DNA of 64,000 nt from Spirochaetia bacterium (GCA_965203055.1 OZ241863.1:2336001-2400000); one strand, 5' to 3'; positions 42,280 to 52,991 are shown, counted from the stretch's first letter. Notes: generated from the sequence alone by a model not told the origin. Numbers and translations are program-made.

Positions 42280-43092
42280 TCAAGCGATACCGCGTTTGAG
42301 GTTGGTCAACTTGGCGCGCAGGCGGATGATCGCCTTGGTGTGAAGCTGCGACACGCGCGACTCCGTGACTTCCAGCACCTCGCCGATCTCGCGCAGCGTC
42401 AGCTCTTCGTAGTAGTACAGCACCAGAACCCGCTGTTCCTTTTCCGGCAGCTCCCGGAGCGCCTCCAGCATGACCCGCTTGATCTCGTTCTTCTCGACGA
42501 TTACGTCCGGATTCATACTGGCCGGAGATTCCACGCTCTCCACGATGGAGATGCGGTCGTTGTCATCGCTGCTGTGCCACAGGTCATTCAACGACATCAC
42601 CGTGGTGCTGCTGATCTTCAGCAGCAACTGCTGGAACTCCTTCAGCGACAGGTTCATCTCCCGGGCCAGCTCGGCGTCGGTAGCCGCGCGCCCCAGGGCC
42701 GCCTCGAGGCGGCGTACGGCATCCTCCACTTCGCGCGCCTTCTGACGAATCGAGCGCGGCACCCAATCGTTGCTGCGCAGCTCGTCGAAGATGGCGCCGC
42801 GGATGCGGGTCACCGCGTAGGTCTTGAACTTGACGTGCTTGCTGGGATCGAACTTCTCGATGGCGTCGAACAAGCCGAACACGCCATAGCCCACCAAGTC
42901 ATCGAACTCCACGCTGCCCGGCATTCCCACCGCCACCTTGCCGGCGACGTACTTGACCAACGGCGCGTACTGGCGCACGAAGTAGTCTCGTATGGTTATA
43001 TCTTTATGAGCACGGTAGTTATCCCACAATTCCCGTTCCTTTTCCTGAGTCAGCGCGACGACGGTGGTCCGCTCCCGGGTATCAGTTGCCAT
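42280..43092 (-). CDS. fliA: RNA polymerase sigma-28 (FliA/WhiG family)
   Basis: [52 protein letters not shown] and [25 protein letters not shown]. Confidence 0.96.
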
Positions 43093-43231
43093 GATGCCCT
43101 TCTAACGGCCGCCGAGCGGGCGCCGCGCAGCGCCGGTGAGGCGCCCGAGACGCCGCCGGCCGGCGGCGGACTGACCGAAACTTGTGACAGCGAACATGGT
43201 GCACCACTTCGTGTCCAACCCGATGGTGAAT

Positions 43232-43260
43232 ACCGTAGGCAGATTTCTGCGCAAGGTCAA
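43232..43260 (-). promoter_or_regulatory. sigma70-like promoter upstream of fliA (TTGACC-N17-TACGGT)
   Basis: Lies in the lower-GC gap of about 200 bp between flhF and fliA. Confidence 0.45.
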
Positions 43261-43298
43261 CATAGTCCCCCTTCTTGAACAGCGTAAAACGTCCTGCA

Positions 43299-44552
43299 TC
43301 ATGAACCTTCCGCCGCATGCCCTGCGGGTACTGCGGCGCGATGTTCCCGCGCCGCGGCAGCGGCGCCGAATTCCTGCTCCAGCAACGTGCGATCGAGACG
43401 AAACCCATCCAGACTCAGGAGCAAACGCACGATCGATGCCGGCGCAATATCCTGCGGCACTACCTGTCCGTCGCAGCAGTACGACAGCGGCTTGCGCGCG
43501 CCCGCAAGAGCCGACAGGACATTGCCGATGGTCGCGGTCTCGTCCAGCTTGGTCACGATCACGCCGTCGTAGGCGAACGGCTCGAACTGGCGCATGATCT
43601 CCTCCAGGTCGGTGTGCTTGGTGGTCGCGCTCAGGACCAGTTGCGTGGTACCGCGGCGGCCCACGGCGTCGAGCACCGAGCGGATCTCCGCCAGGTGGGA
43701 GTAGTCAGCGGGGCTCCTGCCAACCGTATCGATGAAGATCAGACCCGCATCCTGGCCCAACGCAATGGTCTTCTTGAGCTCCTCGGCGGTCTCCGCCGAG
43801 GTTACCGGGATGCGCATGATCTCGCCGTAGGTCTCGATCTGCTGGCGCGCGCCAATGCGGTAGTTGTCGATGGTCACGATGCGCACCGGACAGTCGGCCT
43901 CGGCCGGGCTGCCGATGGCGTGCAGCGCCGCCAGCTTGGCGACGGTGGTCGTCTTCCCTACTCCGGTGGGGCCGACCACGGTGCAGATGCGCGGTCCCGC
44001 CGCGGCGCCGTCGGCCTCCGCCAGCGGCGCCGCCAGCCGCAGCTCGCGGCCGATCCGGCGCGCCACGAAGTGATGCACCGCCGGCGGGTCTTCGAGCCGC
44101 GCCAAGGGAAACTCGGCCCGCACCTGGTCGAGCAGCCGGAGCCGCGCAGGAGCGGCAAAGTCGTTGTGCAGCAGCAGCGTGTCGAGCGCGGCCAACTGCG
44201 GATGCTCCTCCTGCCGCACGGCGACCTGCGCGCGTTCCGGCAACGAGGCGTCCAACCGCGACCGCATCGCCGCCACCTCATCCGCCAGCCGCTGCAGGTT
44301 GGCGCCGGACGGGGCCTGATGCAGGATCTTGCGCTTCTCCTGCGCCAGGTCGGGCGCCTGCGGCGCCGCGCGGTCCGGCGCCGCAGGCTCCACGAAGCCG
44401 GTTATCTCCACCCCCTGTCGGGTGAACATACCCAGCATGCCGCCCATCCGTACCGGGCGGTGAGAGTGAATGCGGGCCTCCGGTCCATACAACCGCTTCA
44501 TCGTTGCCAGCGCCTCGCGGGGGGTGGACCCCTGGATCGTGAAGTACTCCAT
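43299..44552 (-). CDS. flhF: Flagellar biosynthesis SRP-type GTPase FlhF
   Basis: [40 protein letters not shown] and GQVVPQDI. Confidence 0.94.
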   Translation of the reverse strand: MEYFTIQGSTPREALATMKRLYGPEARIHSHRPVRMGGMLGMFTRQGVEITGFVEPAAPDRAAPQAPDLAQEKRKILHQAPSGANLQRLADEVAAMRSRLDASLPERAQVAVRQEEHPQLAALDTLLLHNDFAAPARLRLLDQVRAEFPLARLEDPPAVHHFVARRIGRELRLAAPLAEADGAAAGPRICTVVGPTGVGKTTTVAKLAALHAIGSPAEADCPVRIVTIDNYRIGARQQIETYGEIMRIPVTSAETAEELKKTIALGQDAGLIFIDTVGRSPADYSHLAEIRSVLDAVGRRGTTQLVLSATTKHTDLEEIMRQFEPFAYDGVIVTKLDETATIGNVLSALAGARKPLSYCCDGQVVPQDIAPASIVRLLLSLDGFRLDRTLLEQEFGAAAAAREHRAAVPAGHAAEGS

Positions 44553-44559
44553 TGGCGGC

Positions 44560-51134: not shown

Positions 51135-51249
51135 GCGCTCCCTCCCCAGTAGCGGCCGGCGCGCTGCCCGGTTCCAAGGGCGGGGAACCTGCGGCGCCGG
51201 CCTCACCCCGGCGCCCGCCGCGTGGGGCAGCGTGGCCGGGTCGGGCTCC

Positions 51250-51278
51250 ACGTTACGGCAATGTGGAAAAAGGTGCAA
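51250..51278 (-). promoter_or_regulatory. Promoter-like element between fliF and fliM (TTGCAC-N17-TAACGT)
   Basis: An AT-richer patch in the 175-bp fliF-fliM gap. Confidence 0.4.
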
Positions 51279-51310
51279 GCCGCCGCCGCGGGCGCCGCGG
51301 GCGCCGGCCA

Positions 51311-52882
51311 TTACTTCTCGGCCAGCCACGTGCGCACCGCCCGCGCCGCGTCCGCGGGCCGCTCGCGGGCCAGGCTGGCCGCGTTCCGCTGCATCTCCCT
51401 GGCCCGCAGGTTGTCGGCCTCACGTGCCCGGCCGTTGCGCGCGGCCGCCCGCAACCGCGCCGGGCGCAGGCCGGAGTGGTGCGCCGCGCGCGACCGCCGG
51501 CGCCGGCCCAGCCACCAGGAGAGGGCGGCCACCAGCAGCAGCGCCGCCGCGCCCGCGGCGGCCGGCGGCAGCAGGCGCAGCAACTCGGCCTCGCGCCGCA
51601 GCAGCGCGTCCTCCTGCCGGAACTGGCGCGTGCGGTCGAACTGCAGGTGCTCGACGGTAACCGAGTCGCCGCGCCGCTCGTCCCAGCCGACGGCGCCCTG
51701 GATGAGCAGCGCGGCCTTGCGCAGCTCCTCGGCCGAGACCGGCGTGTATTCCCGCCGCACGCTGCCATCCGCATTCACCACCACCCGGCCGTCCGGCTCG
51801 AAGACCGTCCGCCACACGCCGTCGAGCGCCACGCTCGCGGTGATCCGGTTGATCGCCCACGGGCTCTTCTCGGTGATCGTGCGGCGGTTGACCACTTCGT
51901 TGCGGGCCGCCGAGCCGCGCTCGCGGGCGGCCGGATCGGGCGCGGCTCCGGCCTCGGTAGGCTCCGGCGCCGCGCCGTAGAACGACTCCTGTTCGGTCTG
52001 GTCGGACACGGTGAACTCGGCGGACAGATCGAGATCGATGTCGAGGCGCACGATCTGCACGCGGTCGAGCGTAAAGATGTTGCCCAGCGCGGTCAGGATT
52101 TCGCGCTTGTAGCGCTGCTCCAGGTGATGCTTGGTATCGAGCTGGCGTTCCACCAACGTCATGCGGCCATGCCCGGCAGGGTCCGAGAAGTCGTTCACCT
52201 GCATTCCGCGCGGGTCGAGGATGACGATGTTCTCGGCGCGCAGGCCGGCCACGGCGAACTGCACCAGGCGCTGAACGCCGGCCACCTTCTTGCGATTCTC
52301 CAGGATGTCGGAGCCGGGCCGCGGCGTGATGATGATCGAGGCCGTGGTCGGGTTCTGATCTTCCGCGAACAGCTCGGTTTCGGGCACTACCAGGGTGACG
52401 CGCGCGGCCACGACGTCGTCCAGCGCGGCGATGTGCTGTTCCAGGTTGCGCGTCAGGGCGCGCTGCAGGTTGACGTTGCGCTCGAAGTCGGTAATCGAGA
52501 ACCGGTCCACGTCGAACACGGCGAACGGGTCGGTGCGCGGGGGAATCAGGTCTTCGCGGATCAGGATTGCGCGCAACCGCCGCGCACTGTCCTGATCAGC
52601 GACCAGGATGCGGTTGTCGGGGCCTATTTCGTAGTCCGCGCCTTCCTGGTCGAGGCGGGCGGCGATGCTCAGCAGCGCCTGCTGATCGGCGATCGGCGCC
52701 CCGATCAGGGCCACCGCATGCCGCTCGGCGGGATTCTGGCCCGCGCCGCGGGCGGCGCCCAACAGCGCCAGCACCACGAGCCCGGCGGCGGCGGCCACCA
52801 CCAGCGCTGCCTTCTGAAGCTGAGTCCAACGACCCCACCGGGCGGACGCCTGCTCCCACAGGCGCGCCGAGCGCTCGTTCAT
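51311..52882 (-). CDS. fliF: Flagellar MS-ring protein FliF
   Basis: N-terminal TM, LIREDLIP...DPFAVFDVDRFSITDFERNVNLQRAL, PTTASIIITPRPGSD, LIQGAVGWDERRGDSVTVE and a C-terminal TM ending ARAVRTWLAE. Confidence 0.92.
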   Translation of the reverse strand: MNERSARLWEQASARWGRWTQLQKAALVVAAAAGLVVLALLGAARGAGQNPAERHAVALIGAPIADQQALLSIAARLDQEGADYEIGPDNRILVADQDSARRLRAILIREDLIPPRTDPFAVFDVDRFSITDFERNVNLQRALTRNLEQHIAALDDVVAARVTLVVPETELFAEDQNPTTASIIITPRPGSDILENRKKVAGVQRLVQFAVAGLRAENIVILDPRGMQVNDFSDPAGHGRMTLVERQLDTKHHLEQRYKREILTALGNIFTLDRVQIVRLDIDLDLSAEFTVSDQTEQESFYGAAPEPTEAGAAPDPAARERGSAARNEVVNRRTITEKSPWAINRITASVALDGVWRTVFEPDGRVVVNADGSVRREYTPVSAEELRKAALLIQGAVGWDERRGDSVTVEHLQFDRTRQFRQEDALLRREAELLRLLPPAAAGAAALLLVAALSWWLGRRRRSRAAHHSGLRPARLRAAARNGRAREADNLRAREMQRNAASLARERPADAARAVRTWLAEK

Positions 52883-52961
52883 GTTCCCCTCCCACCGGTG
52901 CGAAGGCGCACCGGATCCGGAGGGCGGCCGGCTCACGTTGCGCCTGAGTCACGCGCTATCC

Positions 52962-52991
52962 GTTAACGCACGGATCGACCGTTCCTGTCAA
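52962..52991 (-). promoter_or_regulatory. sigma70-like promoter at the head of the flagellar operon (TTGACA -35, weak -10)
   Basis: A perfect TTGACA at 52991-52986, just after the hslU stop, with GTTAACG 18-19 nt downstream. Confidence 0.4.

Follow-up and report, generated by a model that had tools for sequence, protein, structure and literature searches.

The flagellar locus considered here raises the question of whether a cluster holding genes for the MS-ring, the export gate and sigma-28, with no rod, hook, stator, fliG or fliI gene beside them, still serves to build a flagellum. The locus was analyzed in a window of 64 kb (the window being the whole stretch of DNA studied) and in ±10 kb around the locus in seven relatives. 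The five of these that share its order are species-level MAGs of uncultured Spirochaetia at ~66-70% GC, some of them complete chromosomes. Judging from sequence, the cluster probably encodes a machine of flagellar origin that has ceased to build flagella, because a reduced gene set is found at the ancestral site, under selection and with its motility-linked parts trimmed.

Gene Content and Layout

On the minus strand of the window, where all the features described below are located, hslU (53010-54410; TIGR00390 HslU, 626 bits), which is the ancestral neighbor of the flagellar operon, is followed by fliF, fliM-fliN-fliO-fliP-fliQ-fliR-flhB-flhA-flhF, and fliA. Each of the eleven flagellar genes from fliF to fliA is present with an open frame, in the order given by the original prediction, and the spacers expected at ~130, ~175, and ~200 bp measure 127 nt (hslU-fliF), 176 nt (fliF-fliM), and 206 nt (flhF-fliA). 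The translational coupling claimed for several of these ORFs can be recognized in five 4-nt overlaps (fliM/fliN, fliP/fliQ, fliQ/fliR, fliR/flhB, and flhB/flhA) and one of 17 nt (fliO/fliP), while flhA and flhF are separated by 7 nt. Among 48 ORFs of the 64-kb window, matches to flagellar NCBIfam profiles above cut-off are confined to 42280-52936.

The MS-ring protein FliF (51311-52882; 523 aa) is matched by PF01514, PF08345, and TIGR00206 (249 bits). It is followed by fliM (50121-51134; 337 aa, GTG start; PF02154, PF01052, TIGR01397) and fliN (49717-50124; 135 aa; PF01052; TIGR02480, 96 bits). All six, FliO, FliP, FliQ, and FliR as well as FlhB and FlhA, are matched by Pfam or NCBIfam models, namely fliO (48976-49665, start codon uncertain; PF04347, E = 2.4e-10), the export gate genes fliP (48156-48992; TIGR01103, 263 bits), fliQ (47878-48159; TIGR01402, 101 bits), and fliR (47036-47881; TIGR01400, 169.5 bits), flhB (45936-47039; 367 aa; PF01312), and flhA (44560-45939; 459 aa; FHIPEP profile positions 2-407 of 657). 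FliP, FliQ, and FliR exceed the curated equivalog cut-offs. An injectisome was considered and rejected: flagellar equivalogs outscore Sct models for every gate protein (FliP 263 vs. SctR 168 bits), and the window contains neither a secretin, SctD, or ATPase gene nor one for a needle. The set is completed by the SRP-type GTPase gene flhF (43299-44552; PF00448; NF009366, E = 5.9e-102) and the sigma-28 factor gene fliA/whiG (42280-43092; NF004935, 412 bits, cut-off 343).

Deletion at the Ancestral Site

The spirochaete origin assumed in the original prediction is confirmed. The order dprA-xerC-hslV-hslU is common to the window, its clade and the outgroups. As the original prediction held for spirochaetes, 72 of 73 outgroup loci display the canonical hslU-flgB-flgC-fliE-fliF-fliG order: fliE lies 5' of fliF in the same number of loci, accompanied by flgB and flgC if the contig reaches far enough, and fliF is succeeded by fliG in 70 of 73, while the remaining three loci stop at fliF. 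In the clade, five relatives (L002-L006), chromosomes of 5.0-7.8 Mb included, have an order identical to that of the window at FliF identities of 58-69%. An assembly artefact at the junctions is therefore excluded, since the order recurs in five species-level relatives. L001 has the same order with an inserted restriction-modification gene, and L007 has an orphan fliF.

Searches for the absent genes agree with this picture. The gaps had been judged too short for remnants, and tblastn with 12 outgroup proteins (E ≤ 1) indeed detects no remnant of FlgB, FlgC, FliE, FliG, FliH, FliI, FliJ, FlbB, FlgD, FlgE, MotA, or MotB in the 64 kb, the sole match to the FliI query being the Rho ATPase. Likewise, flgB, flgC, fliE, flgD, and flgE are not found within ±10 kb in the seven relatives, and neither the 64-kb window nor the relatives' loci contain FliG, MotAB, or FliHIJ. 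There is no flhG after flhF, and the flhF-fliA interval is devoid of any gene. The deletion is thus one at the ancestral locus, in situ and clade-wide. In the FliF tree, the clade sits on a stem branch of 0.82 with 100% support.

Retained Proteins and Their Lost Parts

The original prediction that four kept proteins had lost motility-specific parts is upheld for the FliF insert, the FliM N-terminus, the FlhB cleavage site, and the FlhA C-terminus. FliF aligns to residues 17-289 and 361-566 of the 569 residues of Borrelia FliF; the segment equivalent to 290-360, within RBM3 (226-450), is mostly lost, whereas conservation extends over RBM1, RBM2, and the C-terminal helix. All outgroup rows of FliF alignment A1 conserve the RBM3 insert motif, against 0/26 clade rows, and a deletion of another 29 aa is common to the window and the three relatives nearest to it. 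In the AF2 model, FliF residues 306-357 have a pLDDT below 50.

FliM retains both a middle domain and a FliMN_C domain (TIGR01397 positions 27-318 of 320). Its GGXG motif is invariant across the clade alignment and is also kept in the alignment to the middle domain of H. pylori FliM. The seven clade FliMs share no conserved N-terminal stretch ahead of the middle domain, where canonical FliM has its CheY-P binding peptide. The fliN gene is absent from L003-L006, and no FliN of this subclade occurs among the 120 FliN matches listed.

In FlhB, 6/6 clade proteins have lost the NP(T/E)H autocleavage site and read DGRR, HGER, DAAR, or DPAR instead; where solved FlhB chains read NPEH, the aligned window protein has DGRR. 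FlhB is consequently predicted to be uncleavable, with loss of the substrate-specificity switch. The FliPs of the clade share 84-93% identity, and that of the window can be aligned with residues 39-253 of Borrelia FliP.

Window FlhA aligns to residues 18-437 of the 697 residues of Borrelia FlhA and ends ~30 residues past the equivalent of 437, retaining the transmembrane domain, the linker, and only the start of the cytoplasmic domain. The FHIPEP match of L001 FlhA breaks off at the position reached in the window, and FlhA from L002 lacks Borrelia residues 438-488. The FlhAs of L004-L006 (641-644 aa) each have two FHIPEP stretches, which, together with their similar length, suggests a gap like that of L002. 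No stand-alone C-terminal piece of FlhA is tied to the contig of the window. In studied systems, the FlhA cytoplasmic domain is required for substrate docking; as it is almost gone in the lineage of the window, a protein-export role is weakened there. Moreover, the FliPQR gate has been reported to stay closed until FliE assembles (PMC12403130), so that the lack of a fliE at the locus, taken with this reported dependence, also counts against export.

Selection and Promoter-like Elements

The dN/dS ratios of the cluster range from 0.09 to 0.54 for the window vs. L001 and L002 and from 0.08 to 0.54 for L004 vs. L003, L005, and L006; those of the flanking hslU, hslV, xerC, and dprA range from 0.08 to 0.37. 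The highest values belong to flhB, fliM, and fliO (0.30-0.54), while fliP, fliQ, flhA, flhF (0.17), and fliA equal the housekeeping flanks. With ratios of 0.08-0.54, in the range of hslU, xerC, and dprA, the cluster is not decaying. With every gene well below 1, the kept genes are under purifying selection, in line with the original prediction that the concerted loss does not reflect random decay.

The promoter-like elements that had been proposed stand for fliF and fliA by conservation, although a generic sigma-70 scan of 41500-53500 returns 0 sites and leaves even the fliF-upstream element uncalled. Upstream of fliF (52962-52992), TTGACA (52991-52986) is separated by an 18-nt spacer from GTTAAC (52967-52962). 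The consensus TTGACA-N18-(G/C)(T/A)TAAC is kept in 7/7 clade loci, across all of which GTTGACA does not vary, nor does the TAA of the second hexamer, and L001 retains the element despite a 4.4-kb insertion farther upstream. The element 5' of fliA (43232-43260) consists of TTGACC, a 17-nt spacer, and TACGGT; TTGAC(C/G)-N17-TACNNT occurs in 5/6 aligned loci, the sixth (L002) aligning only from ACC. In the fliF-fliM spacer (51135-51310), a pyrimidine tract is conserved, accompanied by an inverted repeat and an GGGAGGGAG ribosome-binding site, and the conserved blocks of this spacer are found in 3/3 window-type genomes. A pairing of the CCTTTTTCC tract with that ribosome-binding site is suggested by RNAalifold, weakly, with three sequences only.

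Proposed Mechanism and Alternatives

It can be proposed that two blocks, flgB-flgC-fliE and the stretch from fliG up to the genes preceding fliM, were deleted from the operon in an ancestor common to this clade of GC-rich Spirochaetia. The remnant would comprise the FliF ring, a FliOPQR-FlhB-FlhA gate within it, FliM with or without FliN, FlhF, and sigma-28, and after sigma-28 the retained set would continue with two M23 peptidases, preceded by a small membrane protein. Placing the FliF ring and its export gate in the cytoplasmic membrane would fall to FlhF. The resulting complex would template no rod, take no CheY input, and, with an uncleavable FlhB, undergo no substrate-class switching; it would probably dock a FliG encoded elsewhere. 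A rod-less "early-mode" type III gate may open into the periplasm, or the complex may be the membrane platform of such a gate. As a whole, a flgB-type operon reduced in situ to a rod-less gate or gate platform is the best explanation, to which we would give slightly better than even confidence. Gene content, deletion in situ, clade-wide conservation, selection, and domain losses are observed directly, whereas the lack of a flagellum, and whatever the machine may export or do, are inferred from them. The repurposed secretion or sensing machine originally predicted is supported in part, by a loss that is concerted, clade-wide, and accompanied by domain losses in genes under purifying selection, while the conserved FliG docking sites speak against a machine devoid of FliG.

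A rather unlikely alternative is that nothing is exported: the FlhF-placed machine would conduct ions, act as a checkpoint on sigma-28, or serve as a scaffold that is polar or shapes the membrane, and sigma-28 would drive the neighboring cell-wall hydrolases, as autolysins are under SigD control in Bacillus. It would suit a FlhA deprived, in the window, of most of its cytoplasmic domain, and a fliA whose conservation exceeds that of every other gene in the set (80-90% identity across the clade, dN/dS 0.08-0.13). Further in its favor, fliA is followed at spacings of 10 and 34 nt by a conserved gene for a membrane-anchored coiled-coil protein of 165 aa (41772-42269), starting 10 nt past fliA, and by two LysM-M23 peptidase genes (39400-41737; PF01551, PF01476). 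The 165-aa gene, with sub-threshold leads only, to DUF6115, DUF2802, and SpiroCoCo_C, is also next to fliA in L001, L004, L005, and L006, and the first M23 gene adjoins it in L001 and L006. The two LysM-M23 genes may be co-transcribed with fliA and, by their position, may be part of the system. The strong membrane deformation reported for the Borrelia MS-ring and export apparatus (PMC13710759) also speaks for a non-exporting role. However, a FliP, FliQ, and FliR pore constrained like HslU is hard to square with a mere scaffold, no canonical sigma-28 promoter is found in the 64-kb window, and no anti-sigma gene was identified.

Regarding FliG, the conservation of its docking sites counts against the reduced gate or platform preferred here and for a second alternative. 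FliF conservation is 0.73 at the FliG-binding C-terminus vs. 0.74-0.78 at the ring-building motifs; in other words, the last 26 residues, which form the FliG-binding helix in known systems, are conserved like the ring motifs. Since this tail and the FliM GGXG are both conserved, a FliG encoded elsewhere in the genome is likely, and the "partial C-ring" of the original prediction may be a wrong label. All the missing genes, for rod, hook, FliG, FliH, FliI, FliJ, stator, FlhG, and filament, could also lie elsewhere, and mere rearrangement would then have this FliF and gate build working periplasmic flagella. Flagellar genes are spread over several loci in many spirochaetes, and the retention of a strongly constrained sigma-28 and FlhF would likewise be accounted for. 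This is nevertheless improbable given the loss of the FlhB site in 6/6, the FlhA endpoint at Borrelia 437 in the window and L001 with the internal gap in L002, the loss of an RBM3 motif that every outgroup row conserves, the four relatives without fliN, the long FliF stem branch, and the single clade-type FliF per relative's contig among the 120 matches listed.

Finally, neutral decay caught midway, with the kept genes as functionless relics awaiting deletion, could draw on lineage-specific reduction (the orphan fliF of L007, the loss of fliN in L003-L006, and that of the FlhA C-terminus in the window and L001) and on the higher dN/dS of flhB, fliM, and fliO, but was already disfavored and is very improbable considering frames open throughout the window and six syntenic relatives at FliF identities down to 58%, ratios far under 1 for all genes with five matching the housekeeping flanks, maintained start-stop overlaps, and a conserved promoter motif.

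Comparison with Known Systems

The reduced operon is most readily compared with the canonical flgB operon of Borrelia and Treponema, which is likewise sited after dprA-xerC-hslV-hslU and shares orthologous genes in the same order, the best HMM matches here being flagellar rather than injectisome. Unlike in the canonical operon, the genes flgB, flgC, fliE, fliG, fliH, fliI, fliJ, flbB, flgD, flgE, motA, and motB, all of which were tested, are absent here, flhF and fliA are adjacent without an intervening gene, FlhB is predicted to be uncleavable, FlhA is shorter, and the FliF insert and the FliM N-terminal peptide are gone. A relic of the operon is found in L045, a gut Spirochaetia MAG of 46% GC, in which flgB-flgC-fliE beside hslU and the same FliF segment have been lost, independently of the loss in the clade. 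Unlike the clade, L045 has no gate genes following: all that is left there is fliF, a mini-fliG of 221 aa, and a FliK-C remnant.

Partial flagellar sets for which secretion has been proposed also occur in non-motile bacteria, namely in Buchnera, as basal bodies, and in Chlamydia, as an orphan FliF, FlhA, and FliI. Both are host-bound with reduced genomes, and Buchnera has rod, hook, and FliI; in contrast, the genomes here are of 5-7.8 Mb and the set consists of MS-ring, FliM, gate, FlhF, and sigma-28. The non-flagellated soil bacterium Lysobacter enzymogenes OH11 keeps and expresses flagellar export genes, and its FT3SS-like genes are reported to export non-flagellar toxins (PMC7688988). According to the same report, OH11 retains flgE, flgC, flgG, flgH, flgI, flgD, and fliI and secretes FlgD, whereas the cluster here, from a different phylum, has no rod, hook, or ATPase gene locally and has modified gate proteins.

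In Bacillus subtilis, the CORE (FliO, FliP, FliQ, and FliR as well as FlhB and FlhA) has been proposed as a nanotube platform, and "orphan CORE components" are mentioned (PMC6456723). All six CORE genes are present here too, without adjacent axial genes; beyond the CORE, the cluster has FliF, FliM, FliN, FlhF, and sigma-28, with FlhA and FlhB altered. A structure of unknown function, hat-shaped and located at the inner membrane, has also been reported and related to the fT3SS core (bioRxiv 10.1101/2021.09.03.458937). It resembles what is proposed here in being a non-flagellar membrane assembly tied to fT3SS core proteins, but it is seen in bacteria that are also flagellated, and that report describes no dedicated pruned operon with it. 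The reduced flagellar export system is a kind already known, of which the pruned set of GC-rich spirochaetes represents a new variant.

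Gene Content and Surroundings of the Cluster

Eleven open genes, all named by Pfam and NCBIfam, are found on the minus strand of the window (42280-52936; GC content of about 70%), namely fliF, fliM, fliN, fliO, fliP, fliQ, fliR, flhB, flhA, flhF, and fliA/whiG. They are preceded by hslU, hslV, xerC, dprA, xerD, ftsZ, ftsA, ftsW, and murF, and on the downstream side come the gene of a membrane protein of 165 aa, a pair of LysM-M23 peptidase genes, and secA. This order and these open frames are those of the original prediction, in which a flagellar operon pruned to the MS-ring, a partial C-ring, and the export gate was proposed to encode a non-motile, repurposed type III export system. 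Once the starts are refined by conservation, the hslU-fliF, fliF-fliM, and flhF-fliA spacers, expected at about 130, 175, and 200 bp, measure 127, 176, and 206 nt, respectively, and most of the remaining junctions are 4-nt overlaps, in agreement with the translational coupling claimed at several of them. Outside the block, no flagellar family reaches its curated cut-off among the 48 scanned ORFs of the window, where the Rho ATPase core gives weak FliI/SctN-type matches far under the cut-off, and tblastn with twelve outgroup flagellar proteins detects no remnant at E ≤ 1 in the 64 kb. The open genes, together with the lack in the window of any other flagellar family above cut-off and of any tblastn remnant, confirm that the cluster is pruned and that the missing genes have left no local trace.

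Several other features of the window can be mentioned. A LIC_12708-family gene, named from Leptospira (35300-36529; 231 bits for a cut-off of 150), adjoins secA. Tandem EF-G paralogues, an EF-G-type copy and a PRK12740-subfamily copy, lie on the minus strand (27417-31661), and two apolipoprotein N-acyltransferase (lnt) paralogues are found less than 7 kb apart (428-2101, plus strand; 5629-7146, minus strand). A minus-strand defense island (16374-27357), beside a GC dip to 0.62-0.66 at 14-18 kb, comprises an HmaA-like SNF2 helicase (23818-27357), an HmaB-like adenine methylase (20476-23448), an HmaC-like AAA+ ATPase (17591-20479), and a PD-Lambda-5_A-like gene (16374-17504).

Shortening of the Operon in the Clade

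Among the matches listed for FliF, one database entry (582-kb contig) is 99% identical and about 50 relatives share 53-92% identity, the next ones beyond this clade being ordinary 569-aa spirochaete FliFs at 44-51%. No relative was retrieved by scanning genomes with FliF of the window alone, whereas 80 loci were obtained when the query was an alignment of 25 clade rows. Seven of them (L001-L007) are "Spirochaetia bacterium" MAGs with a GC content of 66-72%, several being assembled into contigs that measure 5.0-7.8 Mb, and form with the window a monophyletic group in the FliF tree (80 rows; 100% support; stem of 0.82 changes per site), from which outgroup locus L018 was excluded because its match is shorter than 400 residues.

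The order dprA-xerC-hslV-hslU-fliF-fliM-(fliN)-fliO-fliP-fliQ-fliR-flhB-flhA-flhF-fliA is identical in L002, L004, L005, and L006, and the 4.6-kb contig of L003 carries hslV-hslU-fliF-fliM. L001 has the same order, except that hslU and fliF are separated by an insertion comprising a methylase-restriction fusion of MmeI/Eco57I type (1470 aa) and an ORF of 121 aa (L001 4868-9650). In L007, the deepest member of the clade, an orphan fliF encoding a protein with the conserved C-terminal helix lies amid metabolic genes, with an aldehyde dehydrogenase and an aldo-keto reductase on either side (L007 9992-12566); a PIN/RHH-like toxin-antitoxin pair, judged by eye, is found downstream of it.

Among the 73 outgroup loci (L008-L080), fliE precedes fliF in 72, as do flgB and flgC wherever the contig extends, and fliG follows fliF in 70, the other three loci terminating at fliF. 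The longer ones continue with fliH, fliI, fliJ, flbB, flgD, flgE, motA, and motB. The concerted loss put forward originally is therefore real, in situ, and clade-wide, the shortened order of L002 and L004-L006 contrasting with the canonical order of the outgroups. Acquisition of the cluster by horizontal transfer was rejected, since flanks and gene order are ancestral. High GC is not the cause of pruning, because a second GC-rich group (L019, L021, and L022; 65-69% GC) has the canonical hslU-flgB...motB arrangement in full; spirochaetes of very high GC thus occur both with and without pruning. An independent loss of flgB-flgC-fliE, together with the same segment of the FliF ring-building domain RBM3, is found in L045, a gut Spirochaetia MAG of 46% GC, where hslU is followed by a fliF of 470 aa, a mini-fliG of 221 aa in which the N, M, and C domains are compressed, and a 107-aa FliK-C-like remnant, then by unrelated genes (L045 8607-12461).

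On the best-supported account, the ancestral motility operon was shortened in place in the ancestor of the clade, and what is left of it, encoding the MS-ring, the gate, FlhF, sigma-28, and FliM, alone or together with FliN, is maintained.

Alterations of the Retained Proteins

As originally claimed, four of the kept proteins lack motility-linked parts, the alterations affecting the FlhB site, the FlhA C-domain, the FliF insert, and the FliM N-terminus. At the position of the NPEH motif of the two best-matching solved FlhBs, six clade proteins have DGRR, HGER, HGER, DAAR, DAAR, and DPAR. FlhB autocleavage is the basis of substrate switching and, judging from these residues, is predicted to be impossible in the six proteins.

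FlhA from L002 aligns to residues 18-437 and 489-688 of the 697 of Borrelia FlhA, about 47 residues being missing; this gap is presumably subdomain D2, at the chaperone-docking site. The FlhAs of L004-L006 (641-644 aa) are similar in length, with two stretches matching the FlhA family profile FHIPEP. The alignment of the window FlhA (459 aa) ends at Borrelia residue 437, and that of L001 (471 aa) ends at the same profile position, flhF starting no more than 7 nt after flhA in each case. The possibility of a split FlhA was rejected, none of 14 short FlhA-C matches being tied to the window or L001 contig, a weak argument as the longest contig alone is given.

In the FliF alignment A1, the outgroup motif GTGFNPEGPPGQEGQTPPAY is missing from all 26 clade rows, and a further 29 columns are missing from the window FliF and its three closest relatives. 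The stretch left unaligned against Borrelia FliF (290-360) lies inside RBM3, defined as residues 226-450 in PMC13710759. The AF2 model of FliF has a mean pLDDT of 67 and a pTM of 0.33, with residues 306-357 below a pLDDT of 50.

FliM has an invariant middle domain, including the LLGGRG motif, and no conservation is seen N-terminal of this domain, the L004 and L006 proteins starting about 20 residues before it. fliN is missing from L003-L006, where the FliM/FliN C-terminal domain (FliMN_C) is carried by FliM alone, and among the 120 FliN relatives listed, clade-type FliNs are found only on contigs of the subclade of the window, L001, and L002.

Without the switch, the rod-side insert of FliF, and CheY input, and with part or all of the docking domain of FlhA missing, the kept set would, on the best-supported account, be unfit to build a canonical flagellum. 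A reduced, non-motile, flagellum-derived machine is the reading toward which we lean, and its role might be periplasmic protein export, the shaping or marking of membranes, or the gating of sigma-28 activity. A scaffold or regulatory role without export is considered rather unlikely, and relocation of the missing genes with flagella that still work, improbable.

The FliG Question and the Search for a Hook

In studied flagella, FliG is bound by the C-terminal helix of FliF and likewise by the GGXG motif of FliM. Among clade proteins, the mean pairwise column identity is 0.73 over the C-terminal 26 residues of FliF, compared with 0.74-0.78 for the ring-building regions and 0.52 for the linker before the helix, and nine of these 26 positions do not vary across the clade and the outgroups. 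Considering this conservation and that of GGXG, a FliG gene would be expected elsewhere in the clade genomes, possibly as a divergent copy or second paralogue. Although fliG is missing from the cluster, this conservation argues against a machine devoid of FliG, and the partial C-ring originally proposed may be wrong.

A search with outgroup FlgE against 1.84 billion cluster representatives, which can hide clade members, yielded no candidate tied to a clade contig. Candidates were ranked by composition, 10 of GC type were looked up in their clusters, and 25 were compared with the loci by tblastn; candidate P0126 belongs to outgroup L033.

Selection on the Kept Genes

By the Nei-Gojobori method, dN/dS between the window and L001 and L002 is 0.09-0.17 for fliA, flhF, and fliP, 0.14-0.23 for flhA, 0.17-0.27 for fliQ and fliR, 0.28 for fliF, and 0.23-0.54 for fliN, fliM, fliO, and flhB. 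For the flanking genes, the ratios are 0.09-0.18 (hslU and hslV) and 0.25-0.37 (xerC and dprA), a comparison which outweighs the absolute values because dS is lowered by strong codon bias. The pattern is similar in the second subclade (L004 against L003, L005, and L006; 0.08-0.54). Simple decay of the kept genes, which is not supported given low ratios comparable to those of the flanks in both subclades, is highly improbable, and, of the original proposal, selection in place of random decay is borne out.

Regulatory Signals and the Gene Following fliA

Promoter-like elements had been announced before fliF, fliM, and fliA. A phylogenetic footprint supports those of fliF, with GTTGACA, an 18-nt spacer, and (G/C)(T/A)TAAC in 7/7 loci, and of fliA, with TTGAC(C/G)-N17-TACNNT in 5/6 loci, although a generic sigma-70 scan calls no promoter (terminator-like sites, 4 for 4.7 expected). 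In L001, the fliF motif stays on the fliF side despite the insertion. A canonical sigma-28 promoter scan of the window gives a single weak match, at 1886 inside a coding region, and Rfam has no match at E ≤ 1 on 41500-53300.

The fliF-fliM spacer (51135-51310) is present only in the window, L001, and L002, with conserved blocks in all three, fliM directly following fliF in L004-L006. Its conserved pyrimidine tract CCTTTTTCC is predicted to pair with the fliM ribosome-binding site GGGAGGGAG (RNAalifold, three sequences), and it harbors a GGTTCC...GGAACC hairpin. As a lead, this spacer may be a translational control element.

The 165-aa protein (41772-42269) has a membrane helix at its N-terminus, a coiled-coil segment, and a small end resembling a helix-turn-helix. 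Its gene follows fliA wherever a clade locus reaches, including L004-L006, the L002 locus ending at fliA. DUF6115, DUF2802, and SpiroCoCo_C are sub-threshold leads only, and no paper on "DUF6115" was found. A SwrB-like activator, for which position and size would be the sole basis, is not claimed.

Comparison With Known Systems

In a limited literature, no published account of this kept set in spirochaetes, or of FlhBs that naturally lack the cleavage site, was found. Almost all motility genes are reported lost in non-spiral spirochaetes, in a survey where GC content peaks at 60.9% (PMC12236494), compared with about 70% in the present clade, an undescribed spirochaete group. Incomplete flagellar sets have precedents, a "partial" class comprising about 4% of 11,365 genomes (10.1101/2024.12.05.626484); "orphan CORE components" are mentioned in a nanotube paper (PMC6456723), and a hat-shaped fT3SS-related structure whose function is not known is described in 10.1101/2021.09.03.458937. 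Such sets are usually interpreted as decay or come from symbionts whose genomes are shrinking. In the present clade, the genomes measure 5-7.8 Mb, and selection has preserved the MS-ring, FliM, the gate, FlhF, and sigma-28 despite deep divergence, the losses hitting parts that serve chemotaxis, chaperone docking, the templating of the rod, and the switching of substrates. Provided that these genomes really lack the rest of the flagellum, the clade reveals which components are useful by themselves and provides a natural test case for the conversion of a flagellum into a secretion or signaling device.

More tentatively, it is possible that a family-level lineage of free-living, large-genome spirochaetes has remodeled the periplasmic flagellum to a type III gate in an MS-ring, lacking rod and switch, placed by FlhF, and wired to sigma-28, through which non-flagellar cargo is exported to the periplasm or signals are passed. 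In Lysobacter enzymogenes OH11, a leftover FT3SS is reported to export toxins, yet this strain retains rod, hook, and FliI genes (PMC7688988). The rod-less gate, if real, would be a living parallel, independently evolved, to the loss of motility that has been proposed as a step in the origin of the injectisome.
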